Translations under genes and position numbers: made by a program
Source: a phage
DNA: 64,000 nucleotides
Direction: 5' to 3' (one strand)
Sequence record: OZ346219.1
Notes under the pieces: model-generated
The model's input: only the letters and a program-made list of their open reading frames with translations
Told to the model about the DNA's origin: nothing
Database searches by the model: none
Part shown: piece by piece, positions 44,235 through 48,321 of the stretch
How the letters are laid out: each line of letters begins with the position of its first letter
Position numbering within the stretch: the first letter of the stretch is position 1

Positions 44235-44242
44235 TATTTATT
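44235..44242 (-). promoter_or_regulatory. Possible late promoter for the gene 3 candidate
   Basis: Minus-strand AATAAATA, one mismatch to TATAAATA, ~20 nt upstream of ATG 44213. Confidence 0.3.
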
Positions 44243-44657: not shown

Positions 44658-44690
44658 TAAAAAAGCCCGTCAATGACGGGCTTAATTTTT
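44657..44690. terminator. Bidirectional rho-independent terminator
   Basis: AAAAAAGCCCGTCAATGACGGGCTTAATTTTT; serves plus gene 44403-44657 and minus gene 44689-45741. Confidence 0.65.
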
Positions 44691-45741
44691 AATATGTATC
44701 AGCTAATTTAATTATGTTATCAAGTTCCGTGATTGGTAAAGTTTCTGTGTATCCATCTTTCAACATGGATTTATCAACAACGCCACAATGATAAGTTCTC
44801 TTTATTTCCTTTTCAAGTTCCCACGGAATCCAGCCATCAACACTTTGTTTGACGTAAACAAGTTTGTGAACAAACTTAGATTTCTGCATATGTTGTTTCA
44901 TTCTGGTTTCCGGTAATTCATTGGTTACACCAAACTTTATAAATTTATCATCTAACGTCTGGATATAAAAATATCCCATCTCAGATGGACGATAGCCAGA
45001 AGAACTACATTTCGGACACCCTTTAGCATTTCTGTTGAACGTACAATATCTTACGGAAAATTCTGCATCATGTTTTGTACATTTAAGTTTTATCCATGAA
45101 TTTGCAGTACCTATCCATTCACCATCGACACCTATATATTCATACCCTAACTTTTTACATTTATCTTCTATTCTAGATAGTGCATCTTCCACGGGAACGA
45201 CATATTCCATCTTAAATTGTTCAGCCGCGCATTTCTTACAACCACATGTACCATGATTTTTAAAATCAAAGAACTTTGTATTCTTCCAAATATGGTCATG
45301 TTTCTTGCATCTAAGAATCATCTTAGTAATTTGTGATTTCCACCCACCAACAAATCCCAAAAATTCATAATCAAGATCTTTACATTTTTCTTCAATGAAT
45401 TTGGTTGCTTCCTCTTCTGTCATAACTCCCCTACATTGAGGGCAACCAACAATAACCTTTTTAGCATAGAAACTATTACTGGAAACATCATAGACAGATC
45501 CATGCTTATTGCATTGGATAACAGATCTAGTCAATTTTCCTTTCCATTCTCCAGAAAATCCTAAAAATGTATGGTCGACAAGTTTACACCTCTCAATAAC
45601 TTTGTCCGCAAATTCTCTAGGAGATTTTGTTACTTTGTTTACTCTGTATTCTATTTCTTCCGGTTGACGAAGATCATAAACGTGGGGATTGCTCCCCACG
45701 GAATTAATATTAAGCATCCTTCCACACCTTCCTTGCATCAT
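44689..45741 (-). CDS. GIY-YIG/T5orf172-like nuclease-domain protein with three tandem Cys-rich repeats
   Basis: ATG 45741 (AAAGG SD; track start 45819 overlaps upstream gene); three ~60-aa repeats F.EKC..L.YEFLGF.GEWKG...C.KH...GCP.C then C-terminal GYFYIQTLDDKFIKFGVTNELPETR; sits between the gene 3 and gene 2 candidates. Confidence 0.5.
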   Translation of the reverse strand: MMQGRCGRMLNINSVGSNPHVYDLRQPEEIEYRVNKVTKSPREFADKVIERCKLVDHTFLGFSGEWKGKLTRSVIQCNKHGSVYDVSSNSFYAKKVIVGCPQCRGVMTEEEATKFIEEKCKDLDYEFLGFVGGWKSQITKMILRCKKHDHIWKNTKFFDFKNHGTCGCKKCAAEQFKMEYVVPVEDALSRIEDKCKKLGYEYIGVDGEWIGTANSWIKLKCTKHDAEFSVRYCTFNRNAKGCPKCSSSGYRPSEMGYFYIQTLDDKFIKFGVTNELPETRMKQHMQKSKFVHKLVYVKQSVDGWIPWELEKEIKRTYHCGVVDKSMLKDGYTETLPITELDNIIKLADTY

Positions 45742-46531
45742 AGTTTTTACCTTTAGAAACAAATTTATATGTGTTAAGGTAGATAATATTGCTCCAGTCT
45801 TTCGGGCTAATCTCAACAAGTTTTGTTTTAATGTGTCCAGGTAGATATGCTTTGATCATGTGATCACTTCCACGCATACCTTTTACATCGCTCCATTTGA
45901 TTTTTAAGCGTGTTTTATTGCTCAAGGTAGGAGTAGATGCATATTGCTTTAAAAGTGCCTCTAAAAACTGCTGACGGGCTTTAGGCGTTACATAGTGTAA
46001 GTTAAGACCCAGCATTACAGTATTACCCGCCTTTGTCTTAGAATCACCCAGACAAATGATCAGCGGGAAAACATCCCAATATGGCAAAGTGTCTTTATAC
46101 TTCGCATCATACATAAAGGTATAGATTCGCCCTACTTGCGGTTTTACAATCTGGTGTCCCTTTATTCCCGCTTTTATTGTTTTAGTAAACCACTCCTGTG
46201 ATTTTTCTTTAGGACGACTCTTTGATACAGCACGCATAGACGCACGAAAATCATTAATCATCATCATTGCGCGTTGCTGCTTATTGAGACCCTTTGCTCC
46301 TTTCCCTTTTAGTTTTTCAACTTCTATTGCTGTTTTAATTTCGCTGGCATAACGAGACATACTTTTAGTGAAAGTCGCATAGGCTATTCCCTTAGAATCT
46401 GCAAATGCTTTAGCTGTCATACCTTTGGCTTTTGCTTTCGCAAATTCTACACCCAATTCGACCCACTGTTTAGACTTTCGTTTTTGGGGAGACGGCTTTT
46501 CGTCTTCTGTGATTATTTCAAATACGCTCAT
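45710..46531 (-). CDS. Putative DNA end-protector (gp2-like by synteny and size)
   Basis: 273 aa (T4 gp2 is 274 aa), strongly basic; GAGGATAATATT leader; position between gene 4 and gene 3 candidates. Confidence 0.5.
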   Translation of the reverse strand: MSVFEIITEDEKPSPQKRKSKQWVELGVEFAKAKAKGMTAKAFADSKGIAYATFTKSMSRYASEIKTAIEVEKLKGKGAKGLNKQQRAMMMINDFRASMRAVSKSRPKEKSQEWFTKTIKAGIKGHQIVKPQVGRIYTFMYDAKYKDTLPYWDVFPLIICLGDSKTKAGNTVMLGLNLHYVTPKARQQFLEALLKQYASTPTLSNKTRLKIKWSDVKGMRGSDHMIKAYLPGHIKTKLVEISPKDWSNIIYLNTYKFVSKGKNYDARKVWKDA

Positions 46532-46542
46532 AATATTATCCT

Positions 46543-47016
46543 CTATTTGTTAAGACCTTTAAAGCCAAACACTTTCTTTAATGCATGTTCGGTGATGATC
46601 TTAAACTCCATGTTATGCTTTTGGCATAATTTCACGGCAGCTAACCATTTTTCAGTATTTTTTGTGTATGTCCATACTTCATGCATATATCGTTGCTTTG
46701 TCTTCGCGGTCATTCTTTTTGGCTTTTCCGGTGGCCTTGTCTCTTTAGCTGGTTTAACTTCCCATAAATGCTCCTTGCCATCATCAAACTTAACGTAAAA
46801 ATCCATAAAGTATCTGTGTCTTTTCCCGTCTGTTGATGACTCATAAGGAATTACTACGGTCTCAGATCCCCATTTTGCAACTCTAGGATTGCGGTCTAAA
46901 AATTTCATTATATGTAATTCCCAACTTGACCTGTAGACGATTTTTTTCAGGTCGCCTTTATACTTCTCCGGGTTTTCAGGTCTATATTTACCCTTATATG
47001 TGTTGCAATTACCCAT
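46543..47016 (-). CDS. Putative head completion protein (gp4-like by synteny); PD-(D/E)xK-like motif
   Basis: 157 aa (T4 gp4 ~150 aa); AAGGTGG SD; FMDFYVKF...HLWEVKP resembles a D...E.K nuclease motif. Confidence 0.45.
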   Translation of the reverse strand: MGNCNTYKGKYRPENPEKYKGDLKKIVYRSSWELHIMKFLDRNPRVAKWGSETVVIPYESSTDGKRHRYFMDFYVKFDDGKEHLWEVKPAKETRPPEKPKRMTAKTKQRYMHEVWTYTKNTEKWLAAVKLCQKHNMEFKIITEHALKKVFGFKGLNK

Positions 47017-47711
47017 TATACCACCTTCTTCTTGCAGTTGTCACCATGCCATCTAACATAATTTCCCTGATTGGCTGTTTTTCCACAATGAGGACAGGTG
47101 AAATACGGACGAGACTTTGACAATTCACTATATTTTTGTTTCATTTCTGGCGTGTTATGAATACGTTTCCATTTCTCTACGTTTTCTTGTGACAACTTTC
47201 TACCCTTACCCGCTTTAGAGATGTTGTCTCTCCATTCTTGTGTAATTTCTCTTGACGCAATATTTCTTTTATGTTCTTCTGTAAACACTCTACCTTTTAA
47301 TGAAGCAGATAATTTCTGTCGATGTTCCTCAGATAATTTAATTCCTTTTCTCTTTCCTTTAGTTGCTTCTGATATTCTGCGTCTAGTCTCTTCGGATCTT
47401 TTTCTTCCTGTATGAAATTTTCTTGAAGTCTCGACCGCAAGTTTTCTTACCCACTCAAATTGTTTATTGTTATAGTTGGTAGACCCCATCAATATTTTCG
47501 CCGCATGTACAATTCCGTGATGTGTTGGATGCATTTTTGCTAAAAGTTGATGAGCAACAAAATGTTCAGACCCCGTTAACTCAACTATATTTTCTGGACT
47601 ATCATCACCTCCCATACAACGAGGAATAATATGATGTTTTTCTTTATATCCTTCAAGCGTTCTATGCTTTGCGCGTTCAATTAATCGATCATAATGTTTT
47701 TGATAGTCCAT
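47016..47711 (-). CDS. HNH homing endonuclease (Mob-like) with basic repeat region and zinc finger
   Basis: 231 aa; HHIIPRCMGGDDSPENIVELTGSEHFVAH HNH core; repeated basic G[KR]..SEEH[KR] motifs; C-terminal CPHCG; divergent from gene 53 and shares its leader through a 14-bp inverted repeat. Confidence 0.75.
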   Translation of the reverse strand: MDYQKHYDRLIERAKHRTLEGYKEKHHIIPRCMGGDDSPENIVELTGSEHFVAHQLLAKMHPTHHGIVHAAKILMGSTNYNNKQFEWVRKLAVETSRKFHTGRKRSEETRRRISEATKGKRKGIKLSEEHRQKLSASLKGRVFTEEHKRNIASREITQEWRDNISKAGKGRKLSQENVEKWKRIHNTPEMKQKYSELSKSRPYFTCPHCGKTANQGNYVRWHGDNCKKKVV

Positions 47712-47769
47712 TTTAGCACCCTTTATTATAAATACATAATACTATTTATCAATTGAGGGTGCTAAAATG
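47709..47769. repeat. Perfect 14-bp inverted repeat containing both divergent start codons
   Basis: 47709-47722 CATTTTAGCACCCT and 47756-47769 AGGGTGCTAAAATG; includes HNH ATG (47711, minus) and gene 53 ATG (47767, plus); flanks late promoter. Confidence 0.7.
47727..47734 (+). promoter_or_regulatory. T4-type late promoter (TATAAATA) for gene 53
   Basis: Exact TATAAATA ~33 nt upstream of gene 53 ATG. Confidence 0.55.
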
Positions 47770-48321
47770 CTCTTTTCTTTCTTCCCTGCCATTGAATACA
47801 ACGGCAAGATGATTACTGACATTGTGCGCAATTACCGCGCATATTTCAACGCAATAATTTCTGATTATAACATACAAACATATTACATTCAAGGGAGTCC
47901 ACGACCGGAACAAGTTGCATATGAAGTATACGGAAACCAACAACTTTATTGGATCTTGCTGATGCTTAATGACGTATACGATCCGTTCCATGACTGGATC
48001 ACCGATCAAGAGACAGCATATGAATCAGCCGAACAGCGATATGCAAATGTAGGAGGAAATCAAGTATTATACCACGTTGATATTGACGGAAACAAGTATT
48101 GGAATCTTACCGAATATCCGAAAGGATCAAGCAATTGGTATGATAAAGGGGATATTCATCATCGTCATTTGCAGTTTCAAGGTGCACTATCGGCAGTAGA
48201 CACACTGGAAGATGCGATTCTCCGCAATGAGGAACGACGCAAGATCAAGATCATAGATCCTACACAAATTAAACAATTTATTAACGCATTCATTCGAGAA
48301 ATGGAAAAGGCTGATGTGTAA
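47767..48321 (+). CDS. 53: Baseplate wedge protein gp53
   Basis: 184 aa; MLFSFFPAIEY, YYIQGSPRPE, QLYWILLMLND, VDTLEDAIL align to recalled T4 gp53; late promoter TATAAATA at 47727-47734. Confidence 0.9.
   Translation: MLFSFFPAIEYNGKMITDIVRNYRAYFNAIISDYNIQTYYIQGSPRPEQVAYEVYGNQQLYWILLMLNDVYDPFHDWITDQETAYESAEQRYANVGGNQVLYHVDIDGNKYWNLTEYPKGSSNWYDKGDIHHRHLQFQGALSAVDTLEDAILRNEERRKIKIIDPTQIKQFINAFIREMEKADV

Follow-up and report, generated by a model that had tools for sequence, protein, structure and literature searches.

A symmetric control module between divergent late genes 4 and 53 of a Krischvirus phage, probably older than the HNH endonuclease gene that starts within it

Introduction

Why should a putative homing endonuclease gene and a baseplate gene, oriented away from each other, begin with the same initiation signals in mirror image? 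The question is raised by a 64,000-nucleotide stretch of DNA (sequence record OZ346219.1; hereafter the window) from an RB49-like phage of the genus Krischvirus, in which a minus-strand HNH gene encoding 231 amino acids (47016..47711) and plus-strand gene 53, encoding the baseplate wedge subunit (47767..48321; Pfam Phage_gp53, E=1e-58), start in opposite arms of an inverted repeat. Downstream of the HNH gene on the minus strand lies an intact gene 4 (46543..47016), which encodes a head completion protein of 157 amino acids (Pfam Tn7_TnsA-like_N, E=4e-21) homologous to the annotated gp4 of RB49 and T4. Free-standing endonuclease genes are often promoter-less cassettes relying on upstream phage promoters (PMC2988022), and several late genes of T4 are controlled by RNA hairpins that hide the ribosome binding site and carry a late promoter in the loop, including genes e, soc, 49, I-TevI and segB, with a further case in Aeh1 mobE (PMC3014915, PMC2988022).

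The inverted repeat and its promoters

The left arm, CATTTTAGCACCCT (47709-47722), and the right arm, AGGGTGCTAAAATG (47756-47769), form a perfect 14-bp inverted repeat, bearing out the coordinates and complementarity given in a preliminary description of the locus, as well as the placement of both gene starts within the arms; the spacer measures 33 bp (47723-47755) rather than the 34 bp reported there. Each arm holds the Shine–Dalgarno sequence (SD) and start codon of one gene. The left arm, read on the minus strand, comprises an SD (AGGGTG), a spacer and the ATG, serving the HNH gene here (its ATG is the reverse complement of 47709-47711) and gene 4 in relatives that lack the HNH gene; the right arm carries the SD, spacer and ATG of gene 53 on the plus strand. 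Complementarity between the arms runs out to 19 nt at 89%. No other perfect inverted repeat of at least 12 bp with a spacer of up to 60 bp occurs in the 64-kb window, and first-order Markov simulations gave an expectation of 0.05 per window for 14 bp, with any such repeat in 3 of 100 simulations; an origin by chance is excluded. A search of the same window found no second site with fewer than two mismatches to the 14-mer.

The spacer contains the T4-type late promoter attributed to it earlier, TATAAATA at 47727-47734 on the plus strand, which is the late-promoter box of gene 53 with a predicted +1 near 47740. A late-promoter-like box of the leftward HNH-4-2 transcription unit, GATAAATA (47743..47750, minus strand; predicted +1 near 47737), precedes the HNH ATG by 31 nt. 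The late box occupies positions -13 to -6, of which position -13 is poorly conserved in RB49 (PMC1524935). The window has 12 ATAAATA sites, eight of which fall 21-79 nt upstream of an ORF start on the same strand, and no such box was found inside the HNH ORF on either strand. Given the T4-type late promoter in the spacer, expression of the HNH gene is probably tied to late transcription, so that this half of the proposal that the palindrome couples the endonuclease to late transcription or is a cleavage site appears sound; a cleavage site is unlikely, the same sequence being present in genomes with and without the HNH gene. Sigma-70-like matches in the spacer (11/12) probably reflect no more than the AT-richness of the late boxes and are discounted, since the regional promoter count is not above that of shuffled sequence (30 vs 24.1 +/- 4.7).

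Conservation of the module in Krischvirus

The two start codons delimit a 61-bp quasi-palindrome (47709..47769), present in 59 phage records: it is identical over its full length in 41, differs by one mismatch in 14, and carries a 1-nt insertion in the left arm in 4. The HNH gene accompanies the module in 6 of the 59 records, and in those without it gene 4 starts in the left arm. MIZ2 and Brandy are HNH-positive phages, whereas Phi1 is an HNH-less Krischvirus. Phages W115 and G2494, both HNH-less, have the same 14-bp arms as the window with the gene 4 start in the left one, and the arms of RB49 differ from the repeat of the window by one mismatch. Symmetry-breaking polymorphisms within Krischvirus comprise a C/A change in the right arm (C at 47762 being A in RB49, ELT4, Skers and ELT3, with no compensating change) and an extra T in the left arm; they stand uncompensated in 18 of 59 records, which argues against strong selection for perfect pairing.

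These comparisons bear directly on the suggestion that the palindrome arose when the inserting HNH gene made an inverted copy of the gene 53 initiation region, a reading that draws on the identical 14-nt initiation regions of the two genes and is now effectively refuted: the palindrome is found in the 53 records that lack the HNH gene, with its left arm used by gene 4, the intergenic spacer measures 55 bp in HNH-positive and HNH-less genomes alike, and comparable palindromes of other sequence occur in HNH-less T4-like lineages. The preliminary description had held that this copying would be refuted by the same repeat in HNH-less phages with gene 53 as its sole user; the repeat does occur in such phages, essentially as stated, save that its left arm there serves gene 4 and gene 53 has a partner.

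We consider it very probable that the inverted repeat is an older, two-fold symmetric control module of the divergent late genes 4 (leftward) and 53 (rightward), ancestral in Krischvirus and predating the HNH gene, and that a promoter-less HNH cassette replaced the 5' end of gene 4, thereby inheriting its late promoter, SD and start codon. Read from gene 4 to gene 53, the module would consist of the gene 4 start codon and SD, the gene 53 late promoter, the gene 4 late promoter, and the gene 53 SD and start codon, the two predicted promoters being interleaved.

The HNH gene and the recoded 5' end of gene 4

In the HNH protein, NUMOD3 repeats and a Cys motif at the C-terminus accompany the HNH motif. 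The protein matches the profiles PHROG 655 'homing endonuclease' (E=1e-64), phrog_12434 'HNH endonuclease' (E=1e-10) and, over the gathering score, Pfam NUMOD3 (E=6.7e-7); its matches to Pfam HNH, HNH_4 and HNH_5 stay below threshold (E 0.01-0.07). Residues H26, H27, N41, H50 and H54 are invariant in an alignment of five homologues, and alignment of the HNH homologues also reveals a conserved C-terminal motif, C..C...RWHG.NC, of CxxC...C pattern. A sequence search against solved structures returned nothing meaningful. The gene is sporadic, occurring in 6 of about 60 Krischvirus records, and lies between conserved genes, outside any intron or intein; flanking identity is 98.7-99% in the records that carry it and 91-99% across the shared parts of those that do not. 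By these sequence features it is a free-standing Mob-like HNH homing endonuclease gene of putative activity. Its next-closest homologues are 61-71% identical, and no donor of the cassette came to light, a search of IMG/VR yielding nothing between 71% and 99% identity to the HNH protein.

The first ~39 codons of gene 4 (46900..47016, minus strand) are recoded. Comparison of the window with RB49 and W115 gave 34-35 mismatches in about 117 bp (~30%) over this segment and about 1% elsewhere, and the segment is about 70% identical to all other Krischvirus alleles. It is strictly linked to the HNH gene, being found in the six HNH-positive records only. Co-conversion goes along with homing (PMC2988022), and the recoded segment may be a co-conversion tract, a cleavage-resistant allele of the target, or both.

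Gene 4 has acquired a new initiation region, AAGGTGGTATAATG (47014..47027, minus strand), within the 3' end of the HNH gene, whose stop codon TAA overlaps the gene 4 ATG (TAATG); this stop/start overlap implies translational coupling of gene 4 to the HNH gene. Although AAGGTGGTATAATG matches AGGGTGCTAAAATG at 11 of 14 positions, we make no case for a diverged duplicate, ordinary similarity among initiation regions being sufficient: 17 sites in the window lie within three mismatches of the 14-mer, most of them ending in ATG like gene starts.

The HNH ORF and the recoded first 39 codons of gene 4 together form a cassette (46900-47711, minus strand) that stands in place of the 5' end of gene 4, its right junction falling within the old ATGG. 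An example of the cassette junction sequence is GGTGGTATAATGGGTAATTGCAACAC.

A plausible course of events follows from this arrangement. A promoter-less Mob-like cassette, made up of the HNH ORF and, behind it, a gene 4 5' end of foreign or recoded sequence, would have replaced the first ~117 bp of gene 4; with the right junction inside the old ATGG, the HNH gene would have come into the late promoter, SD and start codon of gene 4, and through these inherited signals would mirror the start of gene 53. Transcription of gene 4 would now run through the HNH gene, and its translation would be coupled at the TAATG stop/start overlap, using an SD that lies within the 3' end of the HNH gene. The endonuclease gene may have spread by double-strand-break repair, with a candidate target in the conserved 5' end of gene 4.

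Homologues in the same position in other genera

In four other genera, Tegunavirus, Gaprivervirus, Tulanevirus and Jiaodavirus, HNH homologues (52-61% identity) occupy the position immediately upstream of gene 4. Within Tegunavirus, the HNH-positive phage TG1 and an HNH-less locus (L057) have the same left arm, which points to the same capture of a start codon in that genus. In Aeromonas phage 25, a homologue sits upstream of gene 4 in a setting that has neither gene 53 nor a divergent junction, and PM2 holds a decayed copy of the HNH gene.

The Aeromonas phage 25 arrangement weighs against the palindrome being a recognition or cleavage site of the HNH protein, or an operator for its autorepression, a reading that we regard as improbable. 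The right junction of the cassette does abut the left arm, and endonucleases of the I-TevI type bind operators overlapping their own late promoters (PMC2988022); as a cleavage site, however, the palindrome would give no discrimination between self and target, being the same in HNH-positive and HNH-negative genomes, which differ instead in the 5' end of gene 4.

A history in which T4-like phages originally had the HNH gene at this site and lost it many times over, as opposed to a gain by a minority of Krischvirus, is comparably improbable. Homologues in the same slot in five genera and the decayed copy in PM2 favour such a history, which would nevertheless require the gene 4 ATG to be restored at exactly the same nucleotide in many lineages. 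It also accords poorly with an HNH-linked gene 4 segment that is ~30% divergent in genomes otherwise ~99% identical to HNH-less relatives; a divergent segment in near-identical genomes is the signature of a recent import.

The region between genes 4 and 53 across T4-like phages

Throughout the T4-like phages, the region between genes 4 and 53 is a quasi-palindrome at the sequence level, built on invariant divergent ATAAATA boxes: ATAAATA and TATTTAT (plus strand) are present at the box positions in 23 of 23 aligned regions. Fourteen of 37 distinct T4-like regions fold at z <=-4, with differing arm sequences. Similarity between the two arms of a genome exceeds that of arms paired across lineages (1/20,000 permutations) by an indel-tolerant arm alignment; this replaced an ungapped, ATG-anchored comparison of both initiation regions in 32 lineages, in which, confounded by 1-nt indels, similarity over 14 nt was not significant (p about 0.22) and that over the last 6 nt was marginal (p about 0.011). 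RNAalifold, applied to a MAFFT alignment of 23 intergenic regions that was not structure-aware, recovered the invariant ATAAATA/TATTTAT pairs only, with no covariation. The arms drift independently in one clade (L027, L029, L032, L037 and L041), and those of T4 have little similarity past the promoter boxes and SD cores.

RNA folding at the strand-switch point

RNAs crossing the whole module have computed folding energies of -27.9 kcal/mol (minus strand) and -28.4 kcal/mol (plus strand), with z of -7.0 and -8.1; none of 200 shuffles folded as well, and in the computed fold the SD and AUG of the read-through RNA fall within the stem. In RNAs begun near the predicted +1 in the loop, the initiation region is unpaired (z about -0.2). 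Late transcripts would begin at ~47740 (+) and ~47737 (-), inside the loop, leaving their initiation regions open, and an RNA crossing the whole module on either strand would form a hairpin of ~-28 kcal/mol burying SD and AUG, with the potential to silence read-through or antisense RNA.

The module marks the place in the window where gene orientation switches, with no co-oriented gene upstream on either strand, and any read-through RNA would consequently have to be antisense RNA. On the minus strand within gene 53 there are sigma-70-like consensus matches only (47892->47864, 10/12 with TG), and no minus-strand terminator-like site was found from 47770 to about 50740.

Discussion

The persistence of symmetry beyond the promoter boxes admits two accounts that we judge about equally likely: that the hairpin gates translation of read-through or antisense RNA, or that the symmetry is a tolerated by-product of interleaved boxes, SDs and arm homogenisation. 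Under the second, which may well be correct if somewhat short of an even chance, perfect symmetry has no function of its own; interleaved ATAAATA boxes and two SDs yield a quasi-palindrome, templated correction or gene conversion between the arms extends it to the start codons, and each arm is kept as a working initiation region. Quasipalindrome template switching has reportedly been described in T4 by Ripley. The uncompensated polymorphisms of Krischvirus, the independent drift of arms in one clade and the weak arm similarity of T4 are consistent with this account, as are the want of co-oriented upstream genes to supply read-through RNA and the restriction of strong arm similarity to scattered lineages, which suggests episodic homogenisation. 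It is opposed by the excess of within-genome over between-lineage arm similarity, by the identity of the full 61 bp in 41 of 59 records, and by an arrangement that fits the documented T4 control design point for point.

The gating of read-through or antisense RNA by the hairpin, in the manner of T4 genes e, soc, 49 and I-TevI and of Aeh1 mobE, is a serious but still tentative possibility. In common with these systems, a stable predicted stem takes up the SD and AUG in its 3' arm, and the late promoter is placed so that late transcripts would be without the 5' arm. In contrast to them, the 5' arm is here the antisense of the divergent neighbour's initiation region, so that a symmetric control would act on both strands; there is no evident co-oriented upstream transcription unit, the polymorphisms are uncompensated, and the control belongs to gene 4, the endonuclease having merely inherited it.

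A more ambitious proposal, which we think doubtful as a whole, is that the module between genes 4 and 53 is a bidirectional translational gate at the main strand-switch point of the genome. Each ribosome binding site would double as the anti-ribosome-binding-site of its neighbour and a crossing RNA would be silent both ways (with possible termination of the plus-strand RNA as well, at the U-rich gene 53 start), the arms being matched by concerted evolution in several T4-like lineages and one arm repeatedly captured by Mob-like HNH genes. If so, capture of the gene 4 arm would give HNH genes late-only expression at no cost, and precise loss of the HNH gene would be costly because gene 4 depends on it for expression.

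The HNH protein resembles those of T4 mobA-E and Aeh1 mobE in its N-terminal HNH motif followed by NUMOD3 repeats, and T4 has five places homologous to the gene, at up to about 39% identity. As in the Mob family, distribution is patchy among near-identical phages, the gene is a promoter-less cassette on a phage promoter, and a divergent, co-conversion-like tract adjoins it (PMC2988022). Unlike the T4 Mob genes, it lies directly upstream of gene 4, in a slot that is empty in T4, and takes a phage SD and start codon at the nucleotide, with an essential gene coupled behind. The T4 region between genes 4 and 53 has the same gene order and orientation, with back-to-back TATAAATA boxes that make up a 12-nt palindrome between the SDs; its symmetry ends at the promoter boxes and SD cores, whereas that of Krischvirus is perfect through SD, spacer and start codon.

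The locus is a tidy but ordinary example of selfish-gene settlement in T4-like phages, and leaves the current understanding of homing endonucleases and of T4 gene control unchanged. It offers a testable case in which a selfish gene appears to have entered at the start codon of an essential gene, taking its promoter, SD and ATG, so that essential gene 4 would be left reliant on read-through and coupled translation while the cassette carries a recoded stretch of its probable target. The conserved 5' end of gene 4 is a candidate target of repeated homing in five or more T4-like genera, and the region between genes 4 and 53 provides a compact natural system for asking whether symmetric initiation regions silence antisense transcripts.

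Origin of the inverted repeat

The HNH gene (231-aa ORF, 47711 to 47016, minus strand) and gene 53 (start 47767, plus strand; Pfam Phage_gp53, E=1e-58) each begin within one arm of a perfect 14-bp inverted repeat, as the preliminary description held and re-reading of 47016-47770 confirmed. The left arm CATTTTAGCACCCT (47709-47722) and right arm AGGGTGCTAAAATG (47756-47769) are exact complements, reach 19 nt if two mismatches are allowed, and enclose a spacer that does contain the late-promoter box TATAAATA (47727-47734), with a measured length of 33 bp rather than the 34 bp first given. The repeat is not a chance occurrence, since no other perfect inverted repeat in the 64-kb window combines arms of ≥12 bp and a spacer of ≤60 bp, against 0.05 14-mer inverted repeats expected per window from first-order Markov simulations; no further copy of the 14-mer with fewer than two mismatches was found in the window.

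The region is matched by ∼60 Krischvirus phages (RB49-like, T4-type), of which six records carry the HNH gene (PTE-Eco09, ELT4, MIZ2, MIZ3, MIZ6 and Brandy); the remainder match over a length shorter by ∼695 bp, in which gene 4, a head completion gene, faces gene 53 directly. Junction alignment showed that in the HNH-less phages W115 and G2494 the 14-bp arms are identical to those of the window and the 55-bp intergenic spacer is unchanged. Gene 4 takes its SD and ATG from the left arm there, and the right arm of RB49 has one mismatch. The 61-bp start-to-start region (47709-47769), used as a query, was found in 59 records (41 identical over the full length, 14 with one mismatch, four with a 1-nt insertion), 53 of them without an HNH gene. 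As these HNH-less records share the region, with the left arm serving gene 4, the palindrome is older than the endonuclease gene and constitutes the divergent gene 4/gene 53 control region, and the proposal that the HNH gene duplicated the gene 53 start on insertion is refuted. A role as the HNH cleavage site, also suggested previously, is unlikely, the palindrome being identical in HNH-bearing and HNH-less genomes, which differ instead in the 5′ end of gene 4.

Start-codon capture and the divergent gene 4 flank

Divergence between the window and both RB49 and W115 is ∼1% throughout, except at 46900-47016, where gene 4 codons 1 to ∼39 abut the HNH gene and 34-35 mismatches (about 30%) occur. 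This gene 4 variant is restricted to the six HNH-bearing records, every other Krischvirus allele having 70-75% identity to it; on the opposite side of the insertion, the match to HNH-less phages resumes at ATG(G). With a divergent tract on one side and identity resuming on the other, the unit that sets HNH-bearing genomes apart from HNH-less ones is 46900-47711, comprising the HNH ORF and a gene 4 5′ end that is foreign or recoded. The right junction of this unit falls within the old gene 4 start codon, so that the HNH gene uses the former SD and ATG of gene 4 and hence mirrors gene 53. The HNH stop shares nucleotides with the gene 4 ATG (TAATG), preceded by an SD-like AAGGTGG, and no ATAAATA box was found within the HNH ORF; gene 4 transcription would thus now depend on passage through the endonuclease gene.

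Comparison of window 46600-47016 with relatives (G2494, locus L003; JEP8, Whisky, KMB43, ELT3, FL04 and JK32) separates at least 3-4 Krischvirus gene 4 allele classes (RB49-type, G2494-type, JK32-type and HNH-linked), which may be footprints of past endonuclease-driven gene conversion. The G2494-type allele contains a ∼400-bp divergent tract, and shares the N-terminal residues RPENPEKYKG and SWELHI with the HNH-linked allele.

A second ORF, of ∼350-376 aa, lies between genes 3 and 2 (44689-45819, minus strand, probable start near 45741); it matches PHROG 681 ‘endonuclease’ (E=2e-79) and, in Pfam, CapR homology domains (E=1e-14). The ORF is missing from RB49, W115 and G2494, where this place lacks any minus-strand gene, but PTE-Eco09 has one; the adjacent 3′ end of gene 2 (45700-45800) has 22 mismatches to these three HNH-less phages, against ∼1% elsewhere. 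The ORF has the appearance of another insertion of the endonuclease type, accompanied by a divergent flank of its own.

Relationship to Mob-like endonucleases

The inserted gene is placed by its sequence with the Mob-like free-standing HNH homing endonucleases: its product matches PHROG 655 ‘homing endonuclease’ (E=1e-64), features NUMOD3 repeats above the Pfam threshold, and keeps the HH...N...H residues and C-terminal Cys motif of its homologs, with weak matches to Pfam HNH models. Homologs occur in >1,100 phage records, including five places in T4 (up to ∼39% identity), and ∼41%-identity copies adjoin nrdA, the mobE position in T4. The nearest homologs outside Krischvirus (52-61% identity) immediately precede gene 4, in the same orientation, and come from four genera: Tegunavirus (TG1, locus L005), Gaprivervirus (UPEC07), Tulanevirus (Aeromonas phage 25) and Jiaodavirus (KpV477, locus L008). 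In Aeromonas phage 25 the second neighbour is gene 5.1 in place of gene 53, indicating that the constant partner is gene 4, not the palindrome. The left arm is identical up to the start codon in TG1 and the HNH-less Tegunavirus locus L057, and the same capture took place there. T-even free-standing endonuclease genes are often promoter-less cassettes relying on upstream phage promoters, can carry signals required by the downstream gene, and spread with co-conversion of flanks (PMC2988022), a description that the HNH gene fits.

In another lineage (IMG/VR T4-like contigs L025 and L031) the slot before gene 4 is filled by a more distantly related Mob-like HNH gene (41% identity), and the sequence beside its start codon is unlike that of HNH-less relatives L026 and L028; invasion of the slot has thus occurred on more than one occasion, and capture was not always exact at the start codon. 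Gene 4 is disturbed in frame near codons ∼17-35 in other genera with the homologous HNH gene: TG1 (2196-2640 of L005) has one frameshift, and the annotated gene 4 product is 117 aa long and truncated at the N-terminus; in KpV477 (2190-2640 of L008) the frame is shifted for ∼14 codons across the conserved GDxxKITYRSSWE motif; and in PM2 (locus L049) both genes are in pieces. These disturbances suggest either an endonuclease target in this conserved stretch or a dispensable gp4 N-terminus, and may alternatively reflect sequencing error.

A divergent late-promoter module

From 56 T4-like loci around gene 53 gathered from IMG/VR, 37 distinct start-to-start regions, gene 4/gene 53 or HNH/gene 53, were obtained. 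All 23 well-aligned regions have ATAAATA on the plus strand and a minus-strand ATAAATA, read as TATTTAT, both without variation, between variable flanks. Of the 12 ATAAATA sites in the window, eight precede an ORF start on their own strand by 21-79 nt. Late promoters of T4 have TATAAATA from -13 to -6, position -13 showing poor conservation in RB49 (PMC1524935). Together these features argue for two interleaved, divergent late promoters, each adjoining the SD of the opposite gene, an arrangement that yields a quasi-palindrome by itself; the T4 region reads CAT-TGGATTCTCC-TTATAAATAGAT-A-ATATATTTATAA-ACAGGAGGGCCC-ATG. Symmetry goes further in several lineages, with differing sequences (locus L027, CATAGTGCCTCC...GGAGGCACTATG; TG1, 19 nt at 95%), folding z-scores are ≤-4 in 14 of 37 regions, and the two arms of one genome resemble each other more closely than do pairs assembled across lineages (1/20,000 permutations, indel-tolerant comparison).

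Another divergent pair of AATAAATA late-promoter-like boxes lies at 44241 (minus) and 44370 (plus), in the interval separating gene 3 from a small plus-strand ORF. A bidirectional terminator-like hairpin, AAGCCCGTCAATGACGGGCTT, comes after it at 44663-44683.

Hairpin gating or neutral symmetry

A box at -13 to -6 would place the late transcript starts near 47740 (plus) and 47737 (minus), within the loop, and RNAs begun there fold with unpaired initiation regions (z about -0.2). RNA crossing both arms folds at -27.9 kcal/mol (minus strand, z -7) or -28.4 kcal/mol (plus strand, z -8), burying SD and AUG. The same anatomy characterises the hairpin/late-promoter device documented for T4 genes e, soc, 49, I-TevI and segB and for Aeh1 mobE (PMC3014915, PMC2988022), with the difference that here each initiation region is the anti-initiation region of its neighbour. 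A U-rich run, CUCUUUUCUUUCUU, lies immediately 3′ of the hairpin (47770-47790, plus strand) and encodes the conserved gp53 N-terminus MLFSFF; the long stem and U-run resemble an intrinsic terminator for rightward read-through (antisense) RNA, which late RNA begun in the loop would escape.

Gating by this hairpin is a tentative reading, somewhat less likely than not, given the strand-switch position, uncompensated polymorphisms and independent arm drift. This junction is where the window switches strand, so RNA crossing both arms would have to be antisense, for which promoter support is at the level of consensus matches, with no excess in the region over shuffles. Strong sigma-70-like matches comprise TTGATA-16-TATAAT (11/12, 47752 to 47725, minus) in the spacer, with a predicted start that falls in the HNH/gene 4 arm, within its SD; one at 47700-47729 (plus); a 10/12 match with extended -10 (47892 to 47864, minus), antisense within gene 53; and an 11/12 match (47044 to 47015, minus) overlapping the HNH stop and gene 4 start. 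The symmetry is broken by two Krischvirus polymorphisms, C/A at 47762 in the right arm and one additional T in the left arm, which in 18 of 59 records have no compensating change, and the arms drift independently in one clade. The C/A variation spans loci L146 (ELT4, HNH-bearing), L147, L148 and L001, in both HNH-bearing and HNH-less backgrounds, and RB49 record OZ035808 has C where reference RB49 records have A; the A variant (GGTGAT) is a better fit to the 16S rRNA 3′ end. The main rival to gating is a neutral origin, in which promoter boxes and SDs seed a quasi-palindrome that templated correction, a mechanism known from T4 mutagenesis studies, occasionally perfects.

By taking the gene 4 arm, the endonuclease would have gained late-only expression signals; the proposed link between the HNH gene and late transcription is plausible, yet inherited from gene 4. 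The locus is best described from its sequence as a Mob-like homing endonuclease gene set in a conserved symmetric late-promoter module and, such free-standing endonucleases being already known, would represent a further example with a particularly neat start-codon capture.
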